Source: Patescibacteria group bacterium
Lineage (GTDB): Bacteria > Patescibacteriota > Patescibacteriia > UBA10025 > JBIOWE01
DNA: 64,000 nucleotides
Assembly (NCBI GenBank): GCA_044868145.1
Contig: JBIOWE010000013.1
Location: forward strand, 6,611-70,610
Direction of reading: 5' to 3'
A program made the position numbers and the translations under genes. The notes beneath the pieces were generated by a model. The model had not been told where the DNA came from and made no database searches. It saw nothing but the letters and a program-made list of their open reading frames with translations. Within the stretch, counting starts at the first letter, position 1; the number at the start of each line of letters is the position of its first letter. Shown piece by piece: positions 4,115 through 47,120 of the stretch.

Positions 4115-4148
4115 CCTGTCAAGTTAACTTGACAGGCCCTGTGGATAA
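4115..4148. promoter_or_regulatory. perfect 22-bp palindrome CCTGTCAAGTTAACTTGACAGG (terminator-like for minus gene) abutting TGTGGATAA box (4140-4148)
   Basis: direct reading. Confidence 0.5.
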
Positions 4149-15891: not shown

Positions 15892-15909
15892 ATTTCAAAA
15901 AATCCTCAA

Positions 15910-15966
15910 TTCGTAATCCGTAATTCGTAATATAATAATTCCCCAATGAGCGATTGCGAATTACGG
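15910..15966. repeat. heptad repeats TCGTAAT-CCGTAAT-TCGTAAT plus inverted ATTACGG copy (14-bp perfect inverted repeat TAATCCGTAATTCG/CGAATTACGGATTA) directly upstream of dnaJ
   Basis: direct reading. Confidence 0.6.
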
Positions 15967-17703: not shown

Positions 17704-17839
17704 TTGTGTATGCTAAATTGTGAATAAGTCAGGTTCTTTCAACATTTTAACCCTTTTTGCAAAGGGAGGTGATGCAAAGCTCTTTACTTACTTCTATATG
17801 TCCTTCGCCTAACCGGGGCCCCTGGCTCCGGTTTTTATT

Positions 17840-17848
17840 TGTGGATAA
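17840..17848 (+). promoter_or_regulatory. TGTGGATAA box (rc of DnaA-box consensus TTATCCACA), 6 nt upstream of -35 of sRNA unit 1
   Basis: perfect 9-mer. Confidence 0.45.
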
Positions 17849-18042: not shown

Positions 18043-18144
18043 ACTTCAATATGTTCCACGGTTTGGTGCTTGGCCCCCTAAGCTAGCCAAACCACTCCCT
18101 AGTTAGAGAGGACCAAGTCGGGTAATGACTTAGGTCCTTTTTTT
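18043..18144 (+). ncRNA. candidate small RNA unit 2 (TTGACA 18008-18013, 17 nt, TATACT 18031-18036; terminator GGACCAAGTC…GACTTAGGTCC + T7)
   Basis: near-consensus promoter; paralogous to unit 1. Confidence 0.55.
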
Positions 18145-18152
18145 GTGGATAA
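18144..18152 (+). promoter_or_regulatory. TGTGGATAA box upstream of -35 of sRNA unit 3
   Basis: perfect 9-mer. Confidence 0.45.
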
Positions 18153-21352: not shown

Positions 21353-21709
21353 TTATTTAAACAAGCTTCTCGATAATCCTGTAAGCATGGCTCCTATTTC
21401 GTCCAGTTTTACCCACAGATCGTCGAGTTCTTTTTTGGTGCAGAACCGTAGCGCATGGCAAATCTCTAACCCTGCCTTTACTTCATTAACGGAACGGAGC
21501 GAAATGTTTAGAAATCGATGAAATTCGACTTTTGAATTAGTTACTGAGGATCCCTCTGAAAGATTCAATAATATGGAGATTGATGCGCGACGCAGTTGAG
21601 CAACGAGACCAAATTTTTCTTCATCTGGTAACGCTTCTGTAAACTTGTATAAAAGTACAATAAACTCCTTGGTCTTTTGATAAACTTTTAAATCTTGATA
21701 TGTTCCCAT
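21353..21709 (-). CDS. four helix bundle protein (TIGR02436-like), second copy, embedded in heat-shock operon
   Basis: 118 aa, paralogous to 2414..2818. Confidence 0.55.
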   Translation of the reverse strand: MGTYQDLKVYQKTKEFIVLLYKFTEALPDEEKFGLVAQLRRASISILLNLSEGSSVTNSKVEFHRFLNISLRSVNEVKAGLEICHALRFCTKKELDDLWVKLDEIGAMLTGLSRSLFK

Positions 21710-25549: not shown

Positions 25550-26326
25550 TCAGCCTTCGTTTGGATACACCACGATCATTACTTTTCTGCCGTTATTCAC
25601 GTCGCCCCTGTTCCAATCATGAATCGCATTCATGAGTACGTCCGGTTCATACACGAACTCCTCGCCCTTGCGCGTGCCAGGGTCATTCGTGATAATCCTG
25701 CCGTCAGCCGTGTACCCACGAATGACCAGCGCATGGTACAAAGGCCCTGGACTGCGAAAATTCAGATTGCCCAGGAGCCGGCCTGCGGCCAGAACGATGA
25801 CTGGCCTGCCGTGCGCCACCTCATTTTTAATATCGTCAATCGTGATGTCGTATTGCACACGCACATCCTTGTACCCCAGGTAATCGCGAATAAACTGAGC
25901 GGTCTGCTCCCCTGTCGTGTCTTGAAAGAAACCAAAGGTAATAGTCTCATAATTCACGAGTTGCTGAATTTCGTCTTCCGCGATTTGCGGGGTAAACGTT
26001 TTGCCTTGCCAGAAGTAGTGCACCATAAGACTCGCGGCTTCTTCACACGCCTCATTATGCGTCTCGTCCCACACGGCAAACGGCGCCTGCGGCGTAAAGG
26101 GCACGGCGAGGTTGTACTCGTCCGGCATCTTAAACACCGGCTGAACGTTCATGTTGTCGGATTTCGGCAAAACGACGGACGGCGCGTTCACGGGTTCCGG
26201 CAAGGAAGCTTCAACCGTCCACTCTTTCCACAAATCCAAAATAGCGACGCGGTTAACATAGGCAATCGCGCCGACAAAAACAACGATGCATGCGGTGGCT
26301 ACCAATAATCTTGCGGTCTTGGTCAT
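25550..26326 (-). CDS. membrane-anchored C39-like (papain-fold) cysteine peptidase domain protein
   Basis: 258 aa; NEACEEAASLMV (Cys) … YHALVIRGY (His). Confidence 0.5.
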   Translation of the reverse strand: MTKTARLLVATACIVVFVGAIAYVNRVAILDLWKEWTVEASLPEPVNAPSVVLPKSDNMNVQPVFKMPDEYNLAVPFTPQAPFAVWDETHNEACEEAASLMVHYFWQGKTFTPQIAEDEIQQLVNYETITFGFFQDTTGEQTAQFIRDYLGYKDVRVQYDITIDDIKNEVAHGRPVIVLAAGRLLGNLNFRSPGPLYHALVIRGYTADGRIITNDPGTRKGEEFVYEPDVLMNAIHDWNRGDVNNGRKVMIVVYPNEG

Positions 26327-26710: not shown

Positions 26711-26767
26711 AGTATTTTGTTGGTACCGCCAAGAGCCCCGAAAAACGCGTTAAAGAATCGAATTTCG

Positions 26768-26842
26768 TAGTCCCAAGCGGATTCGAACCGCTGTTTTCGC
26801 GCTGAGAACGCAATGTCCTAGACCGGGCTAGACGATGGGACC
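26768..26842 (-). tRNA. tRNA-Glu (anticodon CTC)
   Basis: rc GGTCCCATCGTCTAGCCCGGTCTAGGACATTGCGTTCTCAGCGCGA…GCGGTTCGAATCCGCTTGGGACTA; G1-U72 wobble. Confidence 0.75.
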
Positions 26843-26943: not shown

Positions 26944-28839
26944 CTATTCGACGATAACGCCGCTCCTGGCCAACAAAGACCAGTCTCGGTCAAACGAGGC
27001 GGCAGAGTACACGCGCTCACCATACAGCGGGTCATTCACAATAATACTCGTCGGATTATCTTGCGAGCCGACAAATCCTTTGACCACACGAGTATGCTCG
27101 CCGTTAATCGCGAGAACGGTTTTACCGGTCGGCGTTTTCCAATCAATCCGTGCGCCGGTGGTCGCGTTGCCCCAAATAATCACGGGGTTACCCTTGGCAA
27201 TCTCGGCAGTTATCTGACTAATCGTGCCGCCGGTGAACGCGCGACTGGGACGGTATTGCGAACCGACGCGCGCGATCGGCTCCCAATACACGCCGTAGCC
27301 GGTTGTCGGCTGCCTGCCGTCCACGTTGCCGACAAACGCCGCATGCGGGTCACCCCACACATTGCCGTTATGCGGGGTCGGGTCAACGCCTATGCGATCC
27401 AAGAGTTCGTTTTCAGACACAAACACGCCTTTCGCGGCTAAAGCCATGCGCAACGCAGCAGCCTCGCACGACAAATTACGTTGCTGGCGATAATACGGCA
27501 CGGTAATGCGTACTTGCGTTGGCTCCGTGGTGAATGACACACGCATATCCTGCTTAGACGGAATTTTCTCGGAGCCGACAATGCCTGCGACGAGCGTGAC
27601 AGTGTACGTCATGTCGCGACTCAAGGTGGCGGGCTTAAAAGTGAGCGTTGAGCCAGACCAAGCAAACGATCCTTGAACAGGCGGCTGGATGGAAAATCGT
27701 TGTTCCGCGGAGGCATGGTCAACTTCCTGATCAAACGTAAACGAAAGCGATGCACCCGGTTTCACGCCGGTGGCACCGTTTGCGGGAGAGCTGTGACTGA
27801 GCTTTACGCTGCCTCTTGTCGTGAAGGTATAGACGGCGTCTTGCTCAAGGTATCCTCCTGCTTGAGTTCGCACGCCCGCCGGAATTGTCAGGGTGTAGCG
27901 CGTGTCCGGATCAAGCTTTTGGGGTTCGATCTTGTACGCCGTTTGGTCATCCGTTCTCCATGACCCGACCACGTTTGGTTCAACGAAAATTTTTACAGGG
28001 AGGTCTTGCGTATCCATTGGTTCGGAAAAGGTAATGTGCATTGTGCTCGCGCGATCAATGCTATCGCCAGTTGGGCCGACATCCACGATGCCCGGCGCTT
28101 GCCGCGTTTTCCAACTAGTCACGCTCACTTGTACCGGATCGCTCTGACTAATCACTATGCCCGTTTGCAAATCTTTTTGACTGGTGCGCTCAATGATCGT
28201 GAGTTGATACGTAGTGCCCTGCTGCAACCGTGTCTCAGGCCTTAAAGTGTACTCTTGCCCGTTTGCTGATTCCTCAACAGTGAACTGCGTTTCCGGGGCC
28301 AAGGTAAACTCATGAACAACAACGCCGGGGTTGGGGCTGTTGAGTCGCACATGAAACGTGGATTCCGGACTAATGGCGTCAGAGGAGTCGGATGCGGCGA
28401 CCTGTTCTATTTTGGGCGCTGGCTGAGTCGTGAACTGTATTGCCATATCTCGACCCACTCCTGCGGGCATCAAACCATTCCGCACGCCTTGCAGCCGTAT
28501 CGTGTACGTTGTGTTTGGCGCGAATGTCACGAGGGGCTGGAACGTCACGGTTTGCGTAAAAAACTTTTGTAAGAACTGGTCGCCGAACTGCCAATTCCCC
28601 AGCGCCGCGGGCTCAATCGTCGCTTCAATTGCGCGACTAATCGGCCGGTCAAAATGAATCGTAATCGGACTTGCCACGGACACGCGGTCGCCAAATTGGA
28701 CCACCTTTACCTCATGCTCAGGCGGTTTAGCCGCGATCGCCACGCCCGTGAACACAAAAACAAGGAGGCAAAGACTGCCTCCCAAGAGTATTTTTTCCTT
28801 TTTTGTTACGTGATGCGTTTTAGGAATTGCTTGCGGCAT
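26944..28839 (-). CDS. secreted multi-Ig-like-domain protein with C-terminal C39-like peptidase domain
   Basis: 631 aa; signal anchor; beta-rich repeats; C-term YYRQQRNLSCEAAALRMAL … GEHTRVVKGF. Confidence 0.5.
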   Translation of the reverse strand: MPQAIPKTHHVTKKEKILLGGSLCLLVFVFTGVAIAAKPPEHEVKVVQFGDRVSVASPITIHFDRPISRAIEATIEPAALGNWQFGDQFLQKFFTQTVTFQPLVTFAPNTTYTIRLQGVRNGLMPAGVGRDMAIQFTTQPAPKIEQVAASDSSDAISPESTFHVRLNSPNPGVVVHEFTLAPETQFTVEESANGQEYTLRPETRLQQGTTYQLTIIERTSQKDLQTGIVISQSDPVQVSVTSWKTRQAPGIVDVGPTGDSIDRASTMHITFSEPMDTQDLPVKIFVEPNVVGSWRTDDQTAYKIEPQKLDPDTRYTLTIPAGVRTQAGGYLEQDAVYTFTTRGSVKLSHSSPANGATGVKPGASLSFTFDQEVDHASAEQRFSIQPPVQGSFAWSGSTLTFKPATLSRDMTYTVTLVAGIVGSEKIPSKQDMRVSFTTEPTQVRITVPYYRQQRNLSCEAAALRMALAAKGVFVSENELLDRIGVDPTPHNGNVWGDPHAAFVGNVDGRQPTTGYGVYWEPIARVGSQYRPSRAFTGGTISQITAEIAKGNPVIIWGNATTGARIDWKTPTGKTVLAINGEHTRVVKGFVGSQDNPTSIIVNDPLYGERVYSAASFDRDWSLLARSGVIVE

Positions 28840-29045: not shown

Positions 29046-29086
29046 AAAATAAAAAACCCCGGTTATTAAAACCAGGGTTCTTTTTG
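29046..29086. terminator. bidirectional intrinsic terminator (AACCCCGGTT/AACCAGGGTT stem flanked by A-run and T-run)
   Basis: direct reading. Confidence 0.5.
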
Positions 29087-29382
29087 TACACCCGAATGTC
29101 CAGCCATACTACCGGTCAGTATCGCCCTGAACATCTCTTTCCCCTAAACCTTACCCGGATTTTGGGTACTCCGATGTCCATTCTTCGAGACCCCCTGTGT
29201 TCAACAGAGGGCGGAGTCATAGAAGCCTGTGAGCGGCAGGCTGTTTTTGAATAGCCCGTTGGCAGGCGCGGCAATAAATCGCCAATGCTGGAGCCTTTAT
29301 GAAGGGCCATGTACCCCGCTCGACCGATATCAGCACTTCATTCGGGTGAATGTAAAGGACTTTTTGGAGGAACCTTTAAAAT

Positions 29383-29826
29383 CTAGTAAGAGTTTTGGGG
29401 AACTGCCAGAAAGCGGCAGACCGGAGACCATGGATAGTCGTTCGGTGCGAGACCAAGATGTCGACCCTGGCAGGTCTGGCGCGGAAAGAGGACGTACAAG
29501 CGGTGATCCTCCCAGCTGTACCATCTTGATCCAAGAAGTACCAGGGGAAACTCATACGTCTGAAACGTGGCAGTAAACGTCAGGAGGTCCTTAACCGATC
29601 CTGAACAGAGTTTGTTCTCTTTGAAAAAATTCAGCGTGTCGTCGCTTTCGATGAACTCGTCGAAATGGACAATCTGCACCTCTCGTTCGGCCTTAACATA
29701 GGATCCAAGCGGAAAGTGCTTCTCCGTCGCTTGCTGGTCAACCCAGGAAAAGCGACTCTTGTCTATCAGACCATCGAACAGTGCTGACACGAGGTGAAGC
29801 CGGTGTTTCTGAATTGTTAAACCCAT
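29383..29826 (-). CDS. hypothetical protein immediately downstream of RHS toxin gene; candidate cognate immunity protein
   Basis: 147-aa ORF 129 nt after RHS stop, same strand; C-terminal part of ORF may be non-coding. Confidence 0.35.
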   Translation of the reverse strand: MGLTIQKHRLHLVSALFDGLIDKSRFSWVDQQATEKHFPLGSYVKAEREVQIVHFDEFIESDDTLNFFKENKLCSGSVKDLLTFTATFQTYEFPLVLLGSRWYSWEDHRLYVLFPRQTCQGRHLGLAPNDYPWSPVCRFLAVPQNSY

Positions 29827-29955
29827 CTCGCCCTCCTTTTTTTGGTTTTTGTAATGACTACACTACCACAATGGTTGGCTGATTGTCAAACGAAAAAAGA
29901 CAGTCAATACAAAAGCCGCTCCTTTTTCTTGGAACGGCTTTTTTTGGGAAAATCC

Positions 29956-32900
29956 TTAGTATGAATTATACCACAAACCATAGTCTGATGATTCTATATG
30001 CTCCTCCTCGGCCCGCGGATTCAGGGATGGAGCGGGGGGCAATGGACCCTGGACGCCTAGGCCGCCTTTCGGCGGACCCTCGGATTTGTTGGCTCCTGGA
30101 CCAACATTACCCGGAGCATTTTGCGATGGCGTACCGCCACCACCGCTACTTGGGCCAGATGGGATAGGACTAGCTGGGTTGGATAGCGGTGGGTTTAAAT
30201 TTATGTCGCCCATAGCTGTCGGCTGAATATAATCTTCGCCCGGATAGGATGATTGTGGTGCGGTTTTTGGATTCTTCGCCGCCTTAATTACTTCTTCTTT
30301 TACCTTATCCTTTAGTTCTTCTAAAAGCTTTTCTCCTATCTCTCCTAATGCGCCTTTTACGGCTTTAACTCCGGACTTTTCGCAGCCTAAGGTTACACTC
30401 CTTAACAAACCACGTGCTAATTTCGTACCTAGGTTCTTTACGGCTGATGCGGCGTTGAGACCAGTAAGAGTCCAGTCTCCCGTTGTGCTCCCTGCATCGA
30501 TCAATTCCTGGTCTTCGGAAGGTAAATCTTTTTGTCCTTCTACTTCACCCGACAAGGCACCGAGGGTACAATTTTCTAACACCCCTTGCAAATAACCCAA
30601 AAGTGTCAAGCTTGATTCCACCGAAACAATCTCCTCTACAGTCTCGGAGTAGGCGTTTGATACATTTTGTCCTGCATCACTCAATGAATCTGCGAAATCT
30701 CTTTCAGGAATGCCGGGCCCCGCACTGCTAGACCCTGCACCGGAAGGATCTGACCGATCAGGATAATACAGACCGCGAGGATCGGTTCTATTAATAGGGT
30801 TCTCAGCCACATACGCCAGCCCATTCCCAAGATTCATCGGGTCCGTCCACGTGCCAATCGGGTCGCGTTGGATGAAGCGGCCGAGCACAGGACTATACAT
30901 TCTATTGTGGTAGTCGTAGAGCCCTGTTTCGCTGTCGAAACGTTGGCCGGTGAATAGGTACGGGTTGCCGATTGCTGAACTGCCGATGTCAGTTCCGCTC
31001 GCGTTACGGAATGTAGGCTTGCCGTACGGATCATAGTCGTACCGCTCAACAACGTTTCCAGACGAATCCGTTACCGCGCTAACGCTGCCAAGACTATTGA
31101 GATGCGCTGTGTAGTCTTGACCGCTACGTTTAAAGCCGACGAGTTCGTTGGCCCCGGAACCCCAGACATTCGTTGCCTGGACCACGTCGCTGCCATCGCG
31201 TTCTTCCACAGTTTCGAAGCCGCTGTAATAAAACTTCGTGGTTGTTGCGCCGACGATTTTGTTAATCCGACGACCGAGTACATCATACGCGTACGAGGCA
31301 ATCGTTGTCGTACCTGGAGCATCTTTCACGGTGAGGAGCTGGTTCCGATAGTCGTAAACGTATTGATATGTTCCGTCGGACTTCAAGTTCCCGTTCACAT
31401 CGTACGTAAGGCCTGCAGCCCCGACTGTGGTGTACTGGTTCATCTGGCTGTCGGCCGGATTCGGCGTTGTTCCATCCATGACGTACGAAGTGGGTGTGCC
31501 GTTCTCCGTGACACTCGTGCGATTGTTCACGCCGTCAATTGCGTAGTCAATCGTTTTCTGCACCGCACCGGTGTTTGCAACCGGATCGTCAAGGCCCAAC
31601 TTGGCCTGCGTCAGCCGGTACGCGGCATCGTAGCTGTAGCGGTCGCCTTTGCCGCTCCATGGAGCGTGGTTCTTCTTCTCGTACAGTCGGACATTCACGC
31701 TATCAAACCCGTATTGAAAGTCCGTAATGGTTGTGAGCGGCGATACCTTCTCGTCAACAAGATGCGTGATTCTGCGAATCGTGTCGTATGTTACCGTGGC
31801 CTGCGTGCCATTGCCGAACGTGCGTTTGGAAACGCGTCCAAAGCCGAGATAGTCGTTATCAACAATTTGTGAACCATTCGTGATGGTCTGAAGCCGATCC
31901 AACGCGTCAAAGGTTTGATCAAGCGTCCTGCCACCGGGGTAAACGAGGCTCGTCGGGTCGGCGACACTGTTAAACGTGCGGCTAAGAACCTTACCGTTCT
32001 GCGTTTCTGTGCGTGGCTGGCCGAACGAGTCGTATGTTGAGGTGACCATACTGTCCTCGTCTTGACCCAGCGTCATGCGGCTCAACCCGTCATAACCGTA
32101 TGTTTCGGCGGTTGTGCCGAGAACGCCCGGAGCCCGCACGATTGCTCGAGACGTCAAGCGATTTTCGTCATCGTAAACATTCGTGACCACTGACCCGTTT
32201 TGATCCATGGCCGTAAGTACATTGTCGTTCGCGTCGTACGTTTGCGAAGACGTCGTTGCGTCGGCATAGAGCGTTGACGTCAAACGGTTCAGCGCGTCGT
32301 ATGAATAGATTGATGTGTGATTGTTGTCGTCGGTTTGTGAGGCTAGTCGCGAGTTATCATCCCACGCCTGCAAAATCGTAATGGAAGGATCCGCGTCCAT
32401 TCTCGTTTGACGACTCAATCCATCGTACGTGAACGTTGAAACGCTCCCTTTCGCGTCAGTCGTGCGGACAACGTTGCTCCGGCTGTCGTAGGCGTAGGTG
32501 GTCGTCTGACTCAACGGGTCACCCTGTTGCAGCACTTGTGTGGTGAGCCGGTCGAGATCATCGTAGGTGAAGGTGGTGGTCGTGTTCACTGCGGGACCGC
32601 TCACCTCCGGCAGCTCGTGCTCAACCGTGCTGATTACGTTGCTATTTGCGTCGTAGGTGTTCGTGACCGTATTGAGCAGCGGATCCGTGGCCACAGTCAT
32701 TCGGCTCATCCCATCGTATGCGAAAAGCGAATCTCGATTGAGATCGTCTCGAGTTTTTACTAGGCGGCTGTTTTGATCGTACTGGAACTTTGTCGTTCTC
32801 GGATCACCAGGAAGTGCGGCTTGCGTTGCAGGATCAAAATAGGATGCATCCGACTGGAACTCTCGGTTGAGTTCGTCATATTGAAAGGCGGACTCGGCGA

Positions 32901-35328
32901 GTCGGACGTTCCCGCCGCCGGTTTGATTCAAATGGCCTTCATATTTCGAGGTCAACATATTGCCGTTCATGTCGTACGTGAACAACGTTTTGAAACCGAG
33001 CGGGCTTAACCCCTGGGTAAGACGGTCGAAAGGATCGTAGGTGAATTGAGTCATCTTGCCACGGCCGTCAACGCTTTTGATGGTGTTGAAATTCGCGTCG
33101 TACGTAAACGCTTGCGTGGAAGCGCCTGCAGCTCCAAACCCGCGAGTTACCTGATAAGGACGATTACGTCCGTCGTAAATTGTTTTGACGCTGTTGCCAA
33201 ACGGTTCAATAACCTTTGTCACGTTCTCATTCGGATCGTATTCATAGGTCGTCATGACATTCTTTGGCGAATCGTCAACCTCGCGGGTTTCCGTAAGCGG
33301 GTGGTTCAGGATGTCATACGTCCAGGACGAAGTCAGACGATTGTTGGGGTAGAAATTACCGTTCTCGTCCTTGTTGTCCACGTCCACGCGGATGACGTTT
33401 CCGTTCGCGTCGTAGGTGTAATCCGCGGCAATGATAAGCGGATGCCGACCGACAGATCTTGTTACCTGGTTCATGGCGTTTACCGCGTATGTGGAGGCCT
33501 GGCCTTTGCCATCCGTAAACGAGGTGAGGTTTCCCACCGAGTCGTATGTGTAGCTATTGGTAATCGCTGCTCCGCCGCTATCACTTGTGACAGACTGGAG
33601 ATAGCCATTGTTTAGACCGGAGGCGTAATACGCGTAAACGTCGTAATTCCCTTCAGGATGGGTGAGCCTGGTGACCTGGCCGTATTGGTTGTACCGCGTG
33701 GTTGAGGCGGGTTGTTGCGGCTGGCTCAATCCGACAGTCACGGCCGGGGCTTGCACTTTCACCACATTGCCGGCTGTTTGATTCGTTATCTCGTCCCCGT
33801 TCAAATCACCCAGCGTTCCTTCTTCGTAATCATAGAAATAGGTCGTTACTTTCCCTTTCGGGTCTGTCGCTGTTTTGATGAACTGAAAATTCGGTTCGTA
33901 CGTGTAGGACATTACAATGTCCGGGTCCACGCCGAGCGATCCTGCCTTTCGGTTTGTTGACAAAAGGTTGGCCCGCTTTTTCGGATCAGGGTTCGCTGCG
34001 TCGTATGTAAACGACGTTTGATTCCCTCGCGGATACGTTACCAAGCTCAGGGAACCCATGCTGTCATACGCATACATAGTTTCCCAATACGGCGGGTCGT
34101 CCGGATTCACGCCGTTCGAGTACACCTTCTCTTTCGACGGCTGGCCGGAGCTGTTGTAGAACCAGTCCTTGATATTACCATTGCGATCCGTAACGCGCGT
34201 GTAGCTTTGCTCTGGATGGTAGTCGTAAAGATATGTGCCGTTACCGTATACCTGGCTCGACACTCGATCAGACCCATCATACACGTTCGTCAGGAACACC
34301 TGGCCCTTGGGGTCTTTGATCGTCAACAGGTTATGGTTCAAGGTGCCGGGGGTGAGTCCGATTGAATATGTGTACGTTGTCTGACGGCCAGCCGGAAAAT
34401 CCTGGGTTGCCGGAGACGTGACAATGGACAGGTTGCCATCAGCATCGTACGTATACGTCACGCGGCGACTGGTGTAATCCTGCACTGCGGTTATCCTGCC
34501 ATTCGCGTCGTATGCCAGGTAGATGTTTCTGCTAAGCGTGTCAAGAACGCGGACAAGCAAGTTACCGGAATAGAAAAACGTCAGCGTATTGCCATTGCGG
34601 TCAATCATCTGCTTAAGCAAACCATCGTTCGATTGGCTCGCGAACCCGTAGAACACGTACTGGAACCCGTCCGGCTCAAGCAGTGTGTACGTACCATTCC
34701 CGTTCAGACTGATCGTATCGAAGAAACCCGGCGCGGTGTATACGCCTCCATTCAAGGTGTAAAGGTCGTTGAACCGGTTACCAGGCGGCGCGTTGCCTTG
34801 TGGCGTGATAATGCCATGATAAAGGCGGATATTTGAACCGTCCTGCAGAATTCGTTTATTGTAATTAAACTCCCAGCCATAACCAAGACTGCCGCTGTAT
34901 GTAAGCTGTGCGCGGTACACGCGTTGGAATGCAAAGTCCAGCCCCCTACCCGGAATCACCAGATCGGTGGCCTCGAGATAAAATTCACCGTTTTGAAGAT
35001 AAACGGGTTCGCCGTCCGATGTCGGGGTTCCGACCGGAGTGGACGGGATGGACGGAGGAGGAGAACCTCCCCCACCGTGACAGCCTGCGGCGTTTGCTGT
35101 GGGTATAAGGAGAAGTCGCTCAACGACAAACTGAAAACGCTGTAGTGGATTCCTGTGGGTGTTGAATGCTTGAATCCAGGGGCACCTGGCGTACGCGTGC
35201 CAGATCGGTAACCCAATAAAGACAAGAATAAAAAAAATCGCGACGATCAAAGTACGAGCACGAAACGACTTCAACCCTTTTGTGTTAAATTCTCTCCGTT
35301 GAGTATTTTTCTTAACAAAATTTGGCAT
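29956..35328 (-). CDS. RHS/YD-repeat polymorphic toxin (N-terminal TM anchor, YD repeats, RHS core ending DPRGL, ~330-aa variable C-terminal domain)
   Basis: 1790 aa; repeated YD/YxYDxxGR motifs; GNPYLFTGQRFDSETGLYDYHNRMYSPVLGRFIQRDP…NRTDPRGL. Confidence 0.85.
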   Translation of the reverse strand: MPNFVKKNTQRREFNTKGLKSFRARTLIVAIFFILVFIGLPIWHAYARCPWIQAFNTHRNPLQRFQFVVERLLLIPTANAAGCHGGGGSPPPSIPSTPVGTPTSDGEPVYLQNGEFYLEATDLVIPGRGLDFAFQRVYRAQLTYSGSLGYGWEFNYNKRILQDGSNIRLYHGIITPQGNAPPGNRFNDLYTLNGGVYTAPGFFDTISLNGNGTYTLLEPDGFQYVFYGFASQSNDGLLKQMIDRNGNTLTFFYSGNLLVRVLDTLSRNIYLAYDANGRITAVQDYTSRRVTYTYDADGNLSIVTSPATQDFPAGRQTTYTYSIGLTPGTLNHNLLTIKDPKGQVFLTNVYDGSDRVSSQVYGNGTYLYDYHPEQSYTRVTDRNGNIKDWFYNSSGQPSKEKVYSNGVNPDDPPYWETMYAYDSMGSLSLVTYPRGNQTSFTYDAANPDPKKRANLLSTNRKAGSLGVDPDIVMSYTYEPNFQFIKTATDPKGKVTTYFYDYEEGTLGDLNGDEITNQTAGNVVKVQAPAVTVGLSQPQQPASTTRYNQYGQVTRLTHPEGNYDVYAYYASGLNNGYLQSVTSDSGGAAITNSYTYDSVGNLTSFTDGKGQASTYAVNAMNQVTRSVGRHPLIIAADYTYDANGNVIRVDVDNKDENGNFYPNNRLTSSWTYDILNHPLTETREVDDSPKNVMTTYEYDPNENVTKVIEPFGNSVKTIYDGRNRPYQVTRGFGAAGASTQAFTYDANFNTIKSVDGRGKMTQFTYDPFDRLTQGLSPLGFKTLFTYDMNGNMLTSKYEGHLNQTGGGNVRLAESAFQYDELNREFQSDASYFDPATQAALPGDPRTTKFQYDQNSRLVKTRDDLNRDSLFAYDGMSRMTVATDPLLNTVTNTYDANSNVISTVEHELPEVSGPAVNTTTTFTYDDLDRLTTQVLQQGDPLSQTTTYAYDSRSNVVRTTDAKGSVSTFTYDGLSRQTRMDADPSITILQAWDDNSRLASQTDDNNHTSIYSYDALNRLTSTLYADATTSSQTYDANDNVLTAMDQNGSVVTNVYDDENRLTSRAIVRAPGVLGTTAETYGYDGLSRMTLGQDEDSMVTSTYDSFGQPRTETQNGKVLSRTFNSVADPTSLVYPGGRTLDQTFDALDRLQTITNGSQIVDNDYLGFGRVSKRTFGNGTQATVTYDTIRRITHLVDEKVSPLTTITDFQYGFDSVNVRLYEKKNHAPWSGKGDRYSYDAAYRLTQAKLGLDDPVANTGAVQKTIDYAIDGVNNRTSVTENGTPTSYVMDGTTPNPADSQMNQYTTVGAAGLTYDVNGNLKSDGTYQYVYDYRNQLLTVKDAPGTTTIASYAYDVLGRRINKIVGATTTKFYYSGFETVEERDGSDVVQATNVWGSGANELVGFKRSGQDYTAHLNSLGSVSAVTDSSGNVVERYDYDPYGKPTFRNASGTDIGSSAIGNPYLFTGQRFDSETGLYDYHNRMYSPVLGRFIQRDPIGTWTDPMNLGNGLAYVAENPINRTDPRGLYYPDRSDPSGAGSSSAGPGIPERDFADSLSDAGQNVSNAYSETVEEIVSVESSLTLLGYLQGVLENCTLGALSGEVEGQKDLPSEDQELIDAGSTTGDWTLTGLNAASAVKNLGTKLARGLLRSVTLGCEKSGVKAVKGALGEIGEKLLEELKDKVKEEVIKAAKNPKTAPQSSYPGEDYIQPTAMGDINLNPPLSNPASPIPSGPSSGGGGTPSQNAPGNVGPGANKSEGPPKGGLGVQGPLPPAPSLNPRAEEEHIESSDYGLWYNSY

Positions 35329-35337
35329 AAAGTATCT

Positions 35338-35346
35338 TGTGGATAA
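35338..35346 (+). promoter_or_regulatory. TGTGGATAA box 9 nt upstream of RHS start codon (reads TTATCCACA on coding strand)
   Basis: perfect 9-mer. Confidence 0.4.
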
Positions 35347-35552
35347 AGGCTAAAGGATTGATCATCTTACCCTTAGATGGCTAGCAAGGCAAGCACAAAA
35401 CATACCCCCTAACGAAGTGAGATATGTTTTGTTTTTTGGATTTTATCTTTACTGAACCACCCAAATCGCTTCAAGCGCTCTTTCGTTCAAAACTCCACAA
35501 AGGGGTTCTGTGGACCCCTTCGAAGAGTACGGTTAAGTAAACGAAAACGTTC

Positions 35553-35792
35553 TTACTCTTTCCAAGCGTGATGGAAATACAGTGCCGCAAGAAAAGACGT
35601 CATCGAGAGTTGCAGGTAGAAGCTCGAGCTGATGTACAGGAAGGCACCAGAGATTTCCGTGTAGAAGCCAAAGATGCCGGTAACCAGTCCAAATACTGCA
35701 AACGCTGTCGGCACCATTTTCGCTTTCATCATCATCATACGTGTTTTGAGTTTTATTAATTTACCTGCCACGTTCGACCGCCCGCGTGGCAA
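35553..35792 (-). CDS. small membrane protein
   Basis: 79 aa, 2 TM. Confidence 0.35.
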   Translation of the reverse strand: MPRGRSNVAGKLIKLKTRMMMMKAKMVPTAFAVFGLVTGIFGFYTEISGAFLYISSSFYLQLSMTSFLAALYFHHAWKE

Positions 35793-41045: not shown

Positions 41046-42269
41046 TCAACCTTTCATCTTATTTTTTATATTTTCAAATCGATGCTTTGCCAGCAAGAAG
41101 GTAATTTTTGGAACGGACTTGATTCGGGCTTCTTTGAATGATATGCGCCCGGACAAGAAGTCGAGAAAGTACTGGTGCACCTCTTTGTCGCGCCCGAAGT
41201 GTTTTAGGCCAGTGTCAATAATGCTCGGGTGCTCAAAAATAAAATGCTGCATGCTAAGAAGCGTTTTGAACTCCAAACCAAATTCTTTATGCCACAACTT
41301 CTGATACTCGGCGAGCTCGTGTTCCGAAACGTTATCTTTTTGTATTGCGTCAGCCATTACCTTTCCCGCGAGCTCCCCGGAGGTTAAGGCATAGTAAATG
41401 CCTTCTGCAGTGAGCGGCTGCGGGAATCCAGCCGCGTCTCCGCACAAAAGCACCCGATTCGTATACGTTTTTTTCAAAGGTCCTCCCCATGGTATCGCCC
41501 AAGAACGCATGCCGGTCAAAGGAAATGCTTCTGGCAGTAAATGCTCGCTCTTCAGAAATGCGATATACGCGTCATGCACCTGCTTTAAGGCGGCGTCTTT
41601 GTACGTACTAAGAAATCCTACTCCAACGTTCACGAACTTGCCTTTGGGGAATATCCAACCGTATCCGTGAATGCCGTGAAACGCGAAATGGATGATGATT
41701 TCATCGTTCGGCAAGCCGGTGTCGAATTCGAGCTCTTGCTCGGAAGCGAACGCGTAATGATCTTTCGGCCAGCCGAGGTTCAGGCCTGACGCTTTGGCAA
41801 CCAAGCTGTTAATGCCATCCGCGCCAATAACCGCTTTCGCAGTATATACCTCACCATTTTGTAGAAAAACCGTCGCTTCGTCTTGGGTAATTTTGACTTC
41901 CCGGACGCGTTTTCCAAGAACATGATGCACACCCGCTTGCTTGCAGAGCTCATACATGCCCGCGGAAAAATCCAGTCTGCGCATTAAATAGTAAGAGTCA
42001 TGTGCACCGGCAGCCGTGGCCTTTTGCAGTGCGTGCGAATAGACAGTGATTTTGCGAATCGCGGACCGGCTAACCTTGCGCACGATTGGCGCAAGATAGG
42101 GAAAACGCTCGAGGGCAGCGTATCGCAAGCCGCCACCGCACACCTTGTCTTTGGGCAACTTGTCCGCTTCAATTAGGCAAACCGAAACGCCCGCCTTCGC
42201 AAGATTATACGAAGCGTTCTGACCCGATGGGCCTCCTCCGATTACTAAGACATCGTACGATTTCTCCAT
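41046..42269 (-). CDS. geranylgeranyl reductase family FAD-dependent oxidoreductase
   Basis: 407 aa, VLVIGGGPSG Rossmann motif. Confidence 0.7.
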   Translation of the reverse strand: MEKSYDVLVIGGGPSGQNASYNLAKAGVSVCLIEADKLPKDKVCGGGLRYAALERFPYLAPIVRKVSRSAIRKITVYSHALQKATAAGAHDSYYLMRRLDFSAGMYELCKQAGVHHVLGKRVREVKITQDEATVFLQNGEVYTAKAVIGADGINSLVAKASGLNLGWPKDHYAFASEQELEFDTGLPNDEIIIHFAFHGIHGYGWIFPKGKFVNVGVGFLSTYKDAALKQVHDAYIAFLKSEHLLPEAFPLTGMRSWAIPWGGPLKKTYTNRVLLCGDAAGFPQPLTAEGIYYALTSGELAGKVMADAIQKDNVSEHELAEYQKLWHKEFGLEFKTLLSMQHFIFEHPSIIDTGLKHFGRDKEVHQYFLDFLSGRISFKEARIKSVPKITFLLAKHRFENIKNKMKG

Positions 42270-42302
42270 AATTCGTAATACGGAATTCGCAATTCGTAAT
42301 TA
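42270..42302. repeat. heptad repeat array abutting start codon: (sense) ATTACGA-ATTGCGA-ATTCCGT-ATTACGA-ATT-ATG
   Basis: direct reading; 18-mer identical to 2002-2019. Confidence 0.6.
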
Positions 42303-42767
42303 CTTTTTCTTGCCGACGTCGCCGGTCTGCGCATTTTCCGATTTAATAAAATCCTTTACTTTCATGCTCACGCTCTCGGTGAAACTGCCCGCCTGGAACA
42401 CCGCCTTTTTCAGTTTAGCGAGCCCCTTATCAACCACAACGTCGAGCTTGTGGACTGAACCGAACGGGGTGATGGCGCCGGGTTTAACCTTCAACTCGGA
42501 CTGCATCTCTTTTTCTTTCGCAATGCCCACTTTCTTCGCCTTCAGCATTTTCTTGAGTTTGCCGAAATCAAGGTTGTAATGGGCCGGGATAAGGACGAGG
42601 TAATGTTTTTTATCAACCTTAACGAGCAGCGTCTTCGCGATTTCCTGCAGCTTTCGCTTCATGGTTTGCGCTGCATCGTACGCCGTGAACACTTTTTTGT
42701 GTTTCAAAATGTCGTACTTGATTTTGTTTTTGTCGAGATGAGACAGAATTTTCTTTGGGATGGCCAT
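42300..42767 (-). CDS. YbaK/ProX-family aminoacyl-tRNA deacylase-like protein
   Basis: 155 aa, KPGAITPFG motif. Confidence 0.55.
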   Translation of the reverse strand: MAIPKKILSHLDKNKIKYDILKHKKVFTAYDAAQTMKRKLQEIAKTLLVKVDKKHYLVLIPAHYNLDFGKLKKMLKAKKVGIAKEKEMQSELKVKPGAITPFGSVHKLDVVVDKGLAKLKKAVFQAGSFTESVSMKVKDFIKSENAQTGDVGKKK

Positions 42768-45880: not shown

Positions 45881-46057
45881 TTACTTCTGCGCCTCGATGG
45901 GCGTTTTGATAATATTGATGTACTGCGGCTTAATGTCCCGTTGCATTTTTTGGAGAGAGTTCATGAGCAACAATAAGGCCACGGCAATCTCTGCAACGAG
46001 AATGAGAGCACCCAGAACGGTTGGCACTCTACTCCCGCGATATAGTATATCATTCAT
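45881..46057 (-). CDS. small single-TM protein (58 aa), not in ORF track
   Basis: own translation MNDILYRGSRVPTVLGALILVAEIAVALLLLMNSLQKMQRDIKPQYINIIKTPIEAQK; 7-nt gap to next ORF. Confidence 0.35.
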   Translation of the reverse strand: MNDILYRGSRVPTVLGALILVAEIAVALLLLMNSLQKMQRDIKPQYINIIKTPIEAQK

Positions 46058-46060
46058 AAT

Positions 46061-46095
46061 GAATTAAGAATTGCGAATTGCGAATTAAGAATTTT
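46061..46095. repeat. five tandem heptads GAATTAA-GAATTGC-GAATTGC-GAATTAA-GAATTTT abutting start of 58-aa ORF
   Basis: direct reading. Confidence 0.55.
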
Positions 46096-46114
46096 GACCT
46101 TCGACTGTGAACTG

Positions 46115-46592: not shown

Positions 46593-47120
46593 TTAGAAAA
46601 TTATCGTGACTAGTAGTAAAAAAATTATTAAAAGAATGAAAAGAGCTCCCGCCTGATTATAGATATTCCCCTGATCTGATGATAATTTTTGAAACCGATT
46701 TTTTATGATGTAAGCGGCTGCAAGAAAGCAGAGAAGAATAATAAGAAATAATAAGGTAAATACATGAGAACCAACTGCCGCATCCACCGCAATTATTGGG
46801 AAAACGGACAAAAGGAAAAGTATTGAGATTGCAGTAAAAGATAAAGTAGGAGTTACGGGCGTACGTTTCCCCGCTACCCTTCGATATGAAAAAAAGAGAT
46901 ACCAACCAGCAAGAATGGCAGCAAGCAACAATAAAATACTGGCCCAAATCATATATTCCCTAAAGTCCTCCTCGCGAAGACCCACGAGTATGGAACGACC
47001 AAACAAAGTGACGCCCAAACCAAAAGCTGATACCGTATAGAAAATAAAAACTGTCAGCATTATCAAATACGCGGGAGTAGCCTTTTGACTTTTTTCTGGT
47101 TTATTAGAAACAGTATCCAT
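46593..47120 (-). CDS. hypothetical multi-TM membrane protein
   Basis: 175 aa. Confidence 0.45.
   Translation of the reverse strand: MDTVSNKPEKSQKATPAYLIMLTVFIFYTVSAFGLGVTLFGRSILVGLREEDFREYMIWASILLLLAAILAGWYLFFSYRRVAGKRTPVTPTLSFTAISILFLLSVFPIIAVDAAVGSHVFTLLFLIILLCFLAAAYIIKNRFQKLSSDQGNIYNQAGALFILLIIFLLLVTIIF

Follow-up and report, generated by a model that had tools for sequence, protein, structure and literature searches.

The WapA-type RHS toxins of Gram-positive bacteria, which are Sec-dependent (Bacillus subtilis WapA/WapI; Streptococcus suis WapA, PMC12704120) and which the S. suis study gives as larger than 300 kDa, are among the known systems closest to the one reported here. By sequence, the best matches in the PDB are the Rhs cocoons of type VI secretion systems (T6SS), namely V. 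parahaemolyticus RhsP (8H8A), P. laumondii Rhs1 (7Q97), P. protegens RhsA (7PQ5) and A. baumannii Tse15. Rhs proteins carry an aspartyl autoprotease with the signature DPxG...DPxGL, whose role has been described (PMC8636562, PMC12704120), and those of T6SS an N-terminal autocleavage signature, PVxxxxGE (PMC8636562). P. aeruginosa Tse5 is an Rhs protein whose C-terminal toxin is helical and forms pores (PMC10684867, PMC9637101). Here we analyze an RHS/YD-repeat gene (positions 29956..35328, minus strand) in a 64,000-nucleotide (nt) stretch of contig JBIOWE010000013.1, the whole of which we call the window; residue numbers refer to its 1790-amino acid (aa) product. We conclude that this is probably a Sec-exported, T6SS-independent protein of the RHS polymorphic toxin type, with a C-terminal cargo swapped in by recombination and without an adjacent cognate immunity gene.

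The protein shares with WapA a YD shell, a DPxG...DPxGL core and a polymorphic C-terminal domain, and in place of a T6SS adaptor it has a putative Sec-type N-terminal signal. Unlike WapA, it has no wall-anchoring or wall-binding domain and contains a DUF6531 plug; with ∼195 kDa, as estimated from its 1790 aa, it is also the smaller protein. Its locus lacks both an adjacent immunity gene and orphan C-terminal domain/immunity cassettes, and a sortase gene lies 6 kb away, not in a SrtB-SecF-like-WapA module. The C-terminal tail resembles neither a tRNase nor any known toxin by sequence. The T6SS cocoons match over residues ∼940–1520 (E values 1e-33 to 1e-12) and share the aspartyl protease plug and a PVxxxxGE-like motif at the N-terminal plug. 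They differ from the window protein, which comes without PAAR/prePAAR, VgrG, an Eag chaperone or nearby T6SS genes, has a glutamate before the N-terminal motif and has a 23-residue spacing of its DPxG motifs. Tse5 is an Rhs shell with a non-enzymatic, helix-rich cargo, and the tail of the window protein, too, has a predicted helical segment of ∼145 aa, with several GxxxG motifs; Tse5, however, shows no sequence similarity to the window tail, is delivered by a T6SS and has an immunity protein, Tsi5.

Architecture and predicted export of the RHS protein

The giant open reading frame (ORF) of a preliminary description of this DNA, made from the sequence alone, is present with the length and coordinates given there and runs through its 5.4 kb (1790 codons) without frameshift or stop, with native codon usage in the core. 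Pfam identifies RHS_repeat (PF05593, E = 1.2e-59) and a DUF6531 N-terminal plug (residues 106–168; 34825..35013, minus strand), and NCBIfam identifies YD_repeat_2x (TIGR01643, E = 8.6e-30) and the RHS-associated core (TIGR03696, E = 5e-19; residues 1432–1520; 30769..31035, minus strand); TEN_YD-shell (PF25023) is a precomputed annotation of the protein. The shell itself, located by Pfam, NCBIfam, PDB matches and alignment, comprises residues ∼169–1431 (31036..34824, minus strand). We count 36 YD dipeptides, in line with the "dozens" of repeats claimed earlier. The core ends, as had been proposed, in DPRGL (residues 1516–1520), which together with DPIG (residue 1489) marks the aspartyl autoprotease plug; Asp-1489 is invariant among five relatives, and 23 residues separate the two motifs. 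Within the DUF6531 plug, PVYLQNGE (residues 108–115) resembles the signature of N-terminal autocleavage, although the residue ahead of it is glutamate instead of aspartate and the closest relatives in the alignment do not share it. The closest solved structures in a PDB sequence search are all Rhs cocoons (8H8A, 7Q97, 8QJA, Tse5, and Tse15). As judged from its sequence, the protein is a genuine RHS cocoon of the toxin type and, as such, an ordinary representative of a family that is very common.

A hydropathy scan places the only strongly hydrophobic stretch of the protein at residues ∼24–46, within an N-terminal Sec-type signal or signal anchor (residues 1–47; 35188..35328, minus strand). A basic n-region with seven lysine or arginine residues is followed by an 18-residue hydrophobic core (residues ∼26–43) and by Ala-45, Tyr-46, and Ala-47 ahead of Arg-48, which we read by eye as a possible AxA-type cleavage site (AYA|R). 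The preliminary description had placed a transmembrane anchor at the N terminus and had called the protein membrane-anchored. Since the segment could be a cleavable Sec signal and fits this role as well as that of a permanent signal anchor, anchoring is not established. Pfam finds no PAAR, VgrG, LXG, or TcB-type domain in the protein, and no T6SS or other secretion system genes occur within ±10 kb of the gene. On its upstream side the neighbors encode TIM, aldolase, and GAPDH, and on its downstream side proteins of the envelope and chaperones. A sortase-anchored tail was considered and rejected, as a motif scan returned no LPxTG-type motif; a wall-binding domain was likewise not found by Pfam.

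By analogy with the systems described above, the basic and hydrophobic N terminus would direct Sec export and would then be cleaved after Ala-47 or kept as an anchor. The YD repeats would form a closed shell, plugged at one end by DUF6531 and at the other by the RHS-associated core, with the cargo of 270 aa held unfolded inside. The core autoprotease (DPIG...DPRGL) would cut after DPRGL and thereby free the cargo, which could then pass into or onto a target cell.

The C-terminal cargo and its relatives

We collected 4490 homologues of the RHS protein, of which the closest four (P0006–P0009) are 43–55% identical in the core and cover ∼80% of the query. In the alignment, similarity to these four sets in at about residue 105, extends as far as DPxGL and breaks off abruptly on both sides. 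The tails beyond are unrelated to each other in pairwise comparisons (E > 1), so that the C termini are polymorphic, as expected for the polymorphic toxin-type protein proposed earlier, with its YD shell, RHS-associated core and a tail that varies among relatives. A common acidic-Gly-aromatic C-terminal motif suggested for the relatives' tails by a MAFFT alignment was not supported by pairwise comparison and was discarded. The wider group of closest homologues (P0006–P0012; 36–55% identical over the core) are DUF6531-RHS proteins from metagenome-assembled genomes of Omnitrophota, Planctomycetota, and Verrucomicrobiota. They resemble the window protein in having DUF6531, shell and core, signal-like N-terminal segments and unrelated tails. 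Their loci look like typical polymorphic toxin islands with tightly following ORFs of no known family, and one Omnitrophota locus (L007) contains a MafB19-type deaminase cassette downstream of the RHS gene. The window locus, in contrast, has neither close-following ORFs nor a deaminase cassette.

The cargo comprises residues 1521–1790 (29959..30768, minus strand) and is thus 270 aa long, not the ∼330 aa first estimated. It is a sequence orphan, and no known toxin is recognizable in it by sequence: a word-indexed search of 5.8 billion clusters returned no homologue, an exhaustive HMMER pass over 1.84 billion representative proteins returned only the tail itself, and Pfam, NCBIfam, PHROGs, PADLOC, and PDB sequences contained nothing usable (best E values 0.02–0.2, to unrelated entries). 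The tail thus has no relative among 15 billion proteins. Its reported richness in glycine, serine, and proline is real (34% of residues) but confined mainly to the first ∼20 and the last ∼100 residues. Residues ∼1542–1685, a segment of ∼145 aa with several GxxxG motifs, are predicted with low confidence to be helical. The last ∼105 residues are rich in proline, glycine, and serine, are unstructured in an AlphaFold2 model and end in an acidic and aromatic stretch. This single-sequence model is unreliable (predicted local distance difference test score (pLDDT) 43.4). On the Kyte-Doolittle scale, no stretch of 19 residues in the tail scores above 1.09, which makes membrane insertion speculative.

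Codon composition separates the tail from the rest of the gene. The GC content at third codon positions (GC3) is 0.633 up to residue 1510 and 0.404 beyond, with the maximum-likelihood change point at residue 1510, ten residues ahead of the cleavage motif. None of 133 windows of 270 codons from other genes (minimum 0.43, mean 0.586) has a GC3 as low as that of the tail (0.41, compared with 0.63 in the core). We rejected a recent horizontal transfer of the entire RHS gene, as its overall codon usage lies inside the range of other genes (distance 0.084) and the tail alone is foreign. Given the unrelated tails and the GC3 break near DPRGL, the locus displays the C-terminal displacement that is classic for polymorphic toxins: by composition and comparison, the tail appears to have been swapped in recently by recombination, with the gene resident and only the cargo cassette foreign. 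No orphan rhs fragments, insertion sequence elements or repeats flank the gene. We consider the tail a candidate new effector fold, and judge it to have an even chance of being actually toxic.

The 147-aa gene, regulatory signals, and other features of the window

Exactly 129 nt downstream of the RHS gene and on the same strand lies an ORF of 147 aa (29383..29826, minus strand), which the preliminary description located correctly and offered as a candidate immunity gene. The ORF is coding: ratios of nonsynonymous to synonymous substitutions of 0.11–0.30 reveal purifying selection. We assign it to a conserved, lineage-specific family of unassigned function with three members only, the two homologues being 71 and 63% identical to it; no further relatives of this family or of the neighboring Big_5/C39 gene turned up in genome and metagenome contig scans. 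Between the window and the homologous locus L001 the 147-aa gene is 63% identical, compared with 55% for an adjacent core gene. Searches with the protein in Pfam, NCBIfam, PHROGs, PADLOC, and PDB sequences gave nothing usable (best E values 0.02–0.2, unrelated), and its AlphaFold2 model, calculated from a three-sequence alignment, is unreliable (pLDDT 38.9).

The family occurs at loci without an RHS gene. In L001, the one contig that reaches back to the end of the GAPDH gene, we find in order the GAPDH end, a small transmembrane (TM) protein homologous to the one at 35553–35792 in the window, a DUF5666 protein, tRNA-Glu, a 111-aa TM protein, the 147-aa gene and a Big_5/Peptidase_C39_2 gene, and no RHS gene. 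The second relative, L002, is a 1.2-kb contig that begins inside tRNA-Glu, ∼175 nt upstream of the 147-aa gene. Both relatives thus have tRNA-Glu near the 147-aa gene and no RHS gene upstream of it, and in every case the 147-aa gene is paired with the downstream Big_5/Peptidase_C39_2 gene (26944..28839, minus strand, in the window), which encodes a membrane-anchored protein with four Big_5 domains and Peptidase_C39_2. Conversely, the four closest RHS loci have no homologue of the 147-aa ORF downstream.

The signals around the gene are conserved as well. A hairpin (29911..29942, minus strand; 12-bp stem including an A/U extension, −23.7 kcal/mol, z-score −3.3) lies 14 nt beyond the stop codon of the RHS gene; with the U-rich run that follows, it is a putative intrinsic terminator of the RHS transcript; analogous hairpins precede the 147-aa gene at the same position in L001 and L002. 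Between hairpin and start codon (29832..29889, minus strand), the alignment of the three genomes reveals an invariant TTTGACAA as −35 element (TTGACA; 29884–29889), a TAGTGT-like −10 element and a GGAGG Shine-Dalgarno sequence (29832–29836), and all of these, like the hairpin, are common to the three genomes. The GC3 of the gene (0.59) is native, compared with 0.41 for the RHS tail, so tail and 147-aa gene were not acquired together. On synteny and promoter signals, we assign the 147-aa gene to a separate transcription unit that stands outside the RHS system and goes together with the gene for the Big_5/C39-like surface protease downstream of it. The 129-nt gap after the RHS stop codon fits no other ORF, and as the foreign cassette ends between this stop codon and the conserved promoter, there is no room for an immunity gene.

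His-54, Cys-119, His-123, and Cys-137 are invariant in the 147-aa protein and might mark a metal or active site. A second C39_2 protein is encoded further downstream both in the window (25550–26326, minus strand) and in L001 (2501–5238 region), and the 147-aa protein may work with these Big_5/C39_2 surface proteases. In the window, tRNA-Glu(CTC) (26767–26842, minus strand) comes downstream of Big_5/C39, whereas in L001 (1280–1352) and L002 (1–34) it is found upstream of the 147-aa gene. The segment bounded by the small TM gene and the 147-aa gene looks like a rearranging, variable slot: it contains the RHS gene in the window, but DUF5666, tRNA, and a TM protein in L001.

The ORF-poor stretch of ∼290 nt reported after the 147-aa ORF measures 296 nt and does end at a terminator. 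For this terminator, described as bidirectional, we find a 14-bp hairpin and a T-run at 29083–29051, but our scan called it on the minus strand only; with all neighboring genes on that strand, a bidirectional terminator has no evident role. The region between gene and terminator (29051..29382 including the terminator at 29051–29083, minus strand) is structured: 29084–29382 folds unusually well (−123 kcal/mol, z-score −3.6). In L001 and L002 the 147-aa and Big_5/C39 genes are 100–150 nt apart and the structured stretch of ∼300 nt is missing. Rfam searches of the intergenic regions returned only terminator-like chance matches, and none for 29084–29382, which is possibly a lineage-specific structured RNA or a 3′ untranslated region.

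Upstream of the RHS gene, we could verify a box 9 nt ahead of the ATG: TTATCCACA at 35338..35346 on the minus strand (TGTGGATAA on the plus strand), which matches the DnaA box consensus. No Shine-Dalgarno sequence lies between TTATCCACA and the ATG. An upstream ORF (uORF) of 17 codons (35318–35371, minus strand; MINPLAFIHKILYAKFC), itself preceded by an AAGGG site, extends over the start codon of the RHS gene. Because the RHS start has no Shine-Dalgarno sequence of its own and is overlapped by this uORF, translational coupling of the two is possible. While a single copy of TTATCCACA is not significant, the window contains four perfect ones (4140–4148, 17840–17848, 18144–18152, and 35338–35346, all on the minus strand), compared with 0.44 expected, and none of 100 shuffles reaches this number. 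The three whose surroundings were mapped onto called genes lie in intergenic DNA, on the same sense as the genes. Two of the sites, together with a one-mismatch copy at 17719, fall in a stretch of ∼1.1 kb without a called gene, between the end of dnaK (18469) and the start of a DUF3467 gene (17349). A hairpin follows three of the sites within ∼10 nt, and TGTCAAA precedes two. The cumulative GC skew does not turn within the window, so a replication origin is not indicated.

The window contains no taxonomic marker that would bear on the reduced genome suspected in the preliminary description. Elsewhere in it, short tandem arrays of an AATTCGT/AATTCGC heptamer (1994–2030, 2938–2974, 15893–15943, 42262–42312, and 46057–46096) occur on both strands, most of them at the ends of ORFs or between such ends. 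Two genes (∼21353–21709 and 2414–2818, both minus strand) encode four-helix bundles of the 23S_rRNA_IVP type, and one of them also matches bAvd. Such bundles are the accessory protein type of diversity-generating retroelements; there is no reverse transcriptase among the window genes with Pfam calls. The window also has two class-II (Asp/Lys/Asn-type) aminoacyl-tRNA synthetase genes. An ORF of 175 aa without Pfam match (46593–47120, minus strand) lies directly downstream of one of them; at 0.33, compared with a mean of 0.56, its GC3 is the lowest of the window, and it may be foreign DNA.

Alternative readings and significance

Our reading of a Sec-exported RHS protein with an exchanged cargo and no adjacent immunity gene has to be held against several points. 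The DPxG motifs are 23 residues apart, compared with 17–18 residues in characterized Rhs proteins (PMC8636562, PMC12704120). The tail, whose toxic activity we infer, has no recognizable fold (pLDDT 43), and ∼100 of its 270 residues are low-complexity proline, glycine, and serine. We find no immunity gene, which is unusual for an antibacterial RHS toxin. The missing Shine-Dalgarno sequence at the RHS start codon may bear on the level of expression, and the comparison within the host lineage covers two relatives, one of them the 1.2-kb contig. That immunity is absent might mean that the producer lacks the target and needs none, that immunity is encoded elsewhere or that the cargo is not toxic.

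The last of these would apply if the protein were a non-toxic surface protein, an adhesin- or teneurin-like shell or a decayed toxin whose tail is a helical spacer with a disordered, proline-rich end, and which needs no immunity. This would account for the low-complexity residues, for the failure to find a toxin fold or family and for the missing immunity gene. It would also agree with the tails of P0007 and P0009, which are likewise proline-rich and coiled-coil-like, and with the loss of DPxGL in P0007. We nevertheless find it unlikely, as the autoprotease motifs and the 5.4-kb ORF are intact, the sharp compositional break at the cleavage motif speaks for cassette exchange as is typical of toxin diversification, and the tail has no LPxTG motif or wall-binding domain that would make it an anchor. 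Very unlikely is the toxin-immunity pair of the preliminary description. The 147-aa ORF is indeed small, on the same strand, close to the RHS gene, apparently cytoplasmic and of no known family, and orphan immunity genes that lack a toxin are known from other systems of polymorphic toxins. Against the pair stand the synteny and promoter that the gene keeps in two relatives with no upstream RHS gene, its two homologues compared with none anywhere searched for the tail, the unequal GC3 of the two, the purifying selection on a gene at least as well conserved as its core neighbor, and the hairpin terminator in between. A silent or poorly expressed relic, with no ribosome-binding site and a DnaA box-like operator over the translation start region, could be read from the start of the gene, where the Shine-Dalgarno sequence is missing, TTATCCACA lies 9 nt upstream and the uORF overlaps the start codon. 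With 1790 open codons, whole-gene codon usage in range and a uORF that could provide translational coupling, a relic seems to us extremely improbable. One may also speculate that an ultra-small bacterium dependent on a partner uses the protein as a host-directed effector. The Sec-only RHS shell would here deliver to the partner cell a new kind of cargo, helical and disordered, whose target is absent from the producer, hence the lack of an immunity gene, and TTATCCACA would tie expression to a regulator acting at the three other intergenic sites in the window; we rate this extended scenario as improbable.

RHS proteins with orphan C termini are known by the thousand, and the RHS gene described here is in itself routine. 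Without functional data, a specialist would be surprised neither by the orphan cargo nor by the lack of an immunity gene, which is mildly unusual. The case does illustrate that a small ORF following a toxin gene needs comparative evidence before it is labeled an immunity gene, a label contradicted here by synteny, promoter conservation, and codon composition. A T6SS-independent RHS protein carrying a freshly exchanged cargo without immunity gives a hint that the target is not of the producer's own kind. Should the organism live as a symbiont or epibiont, the protein would offer a testable lead on the means by which such cells affect their partners.

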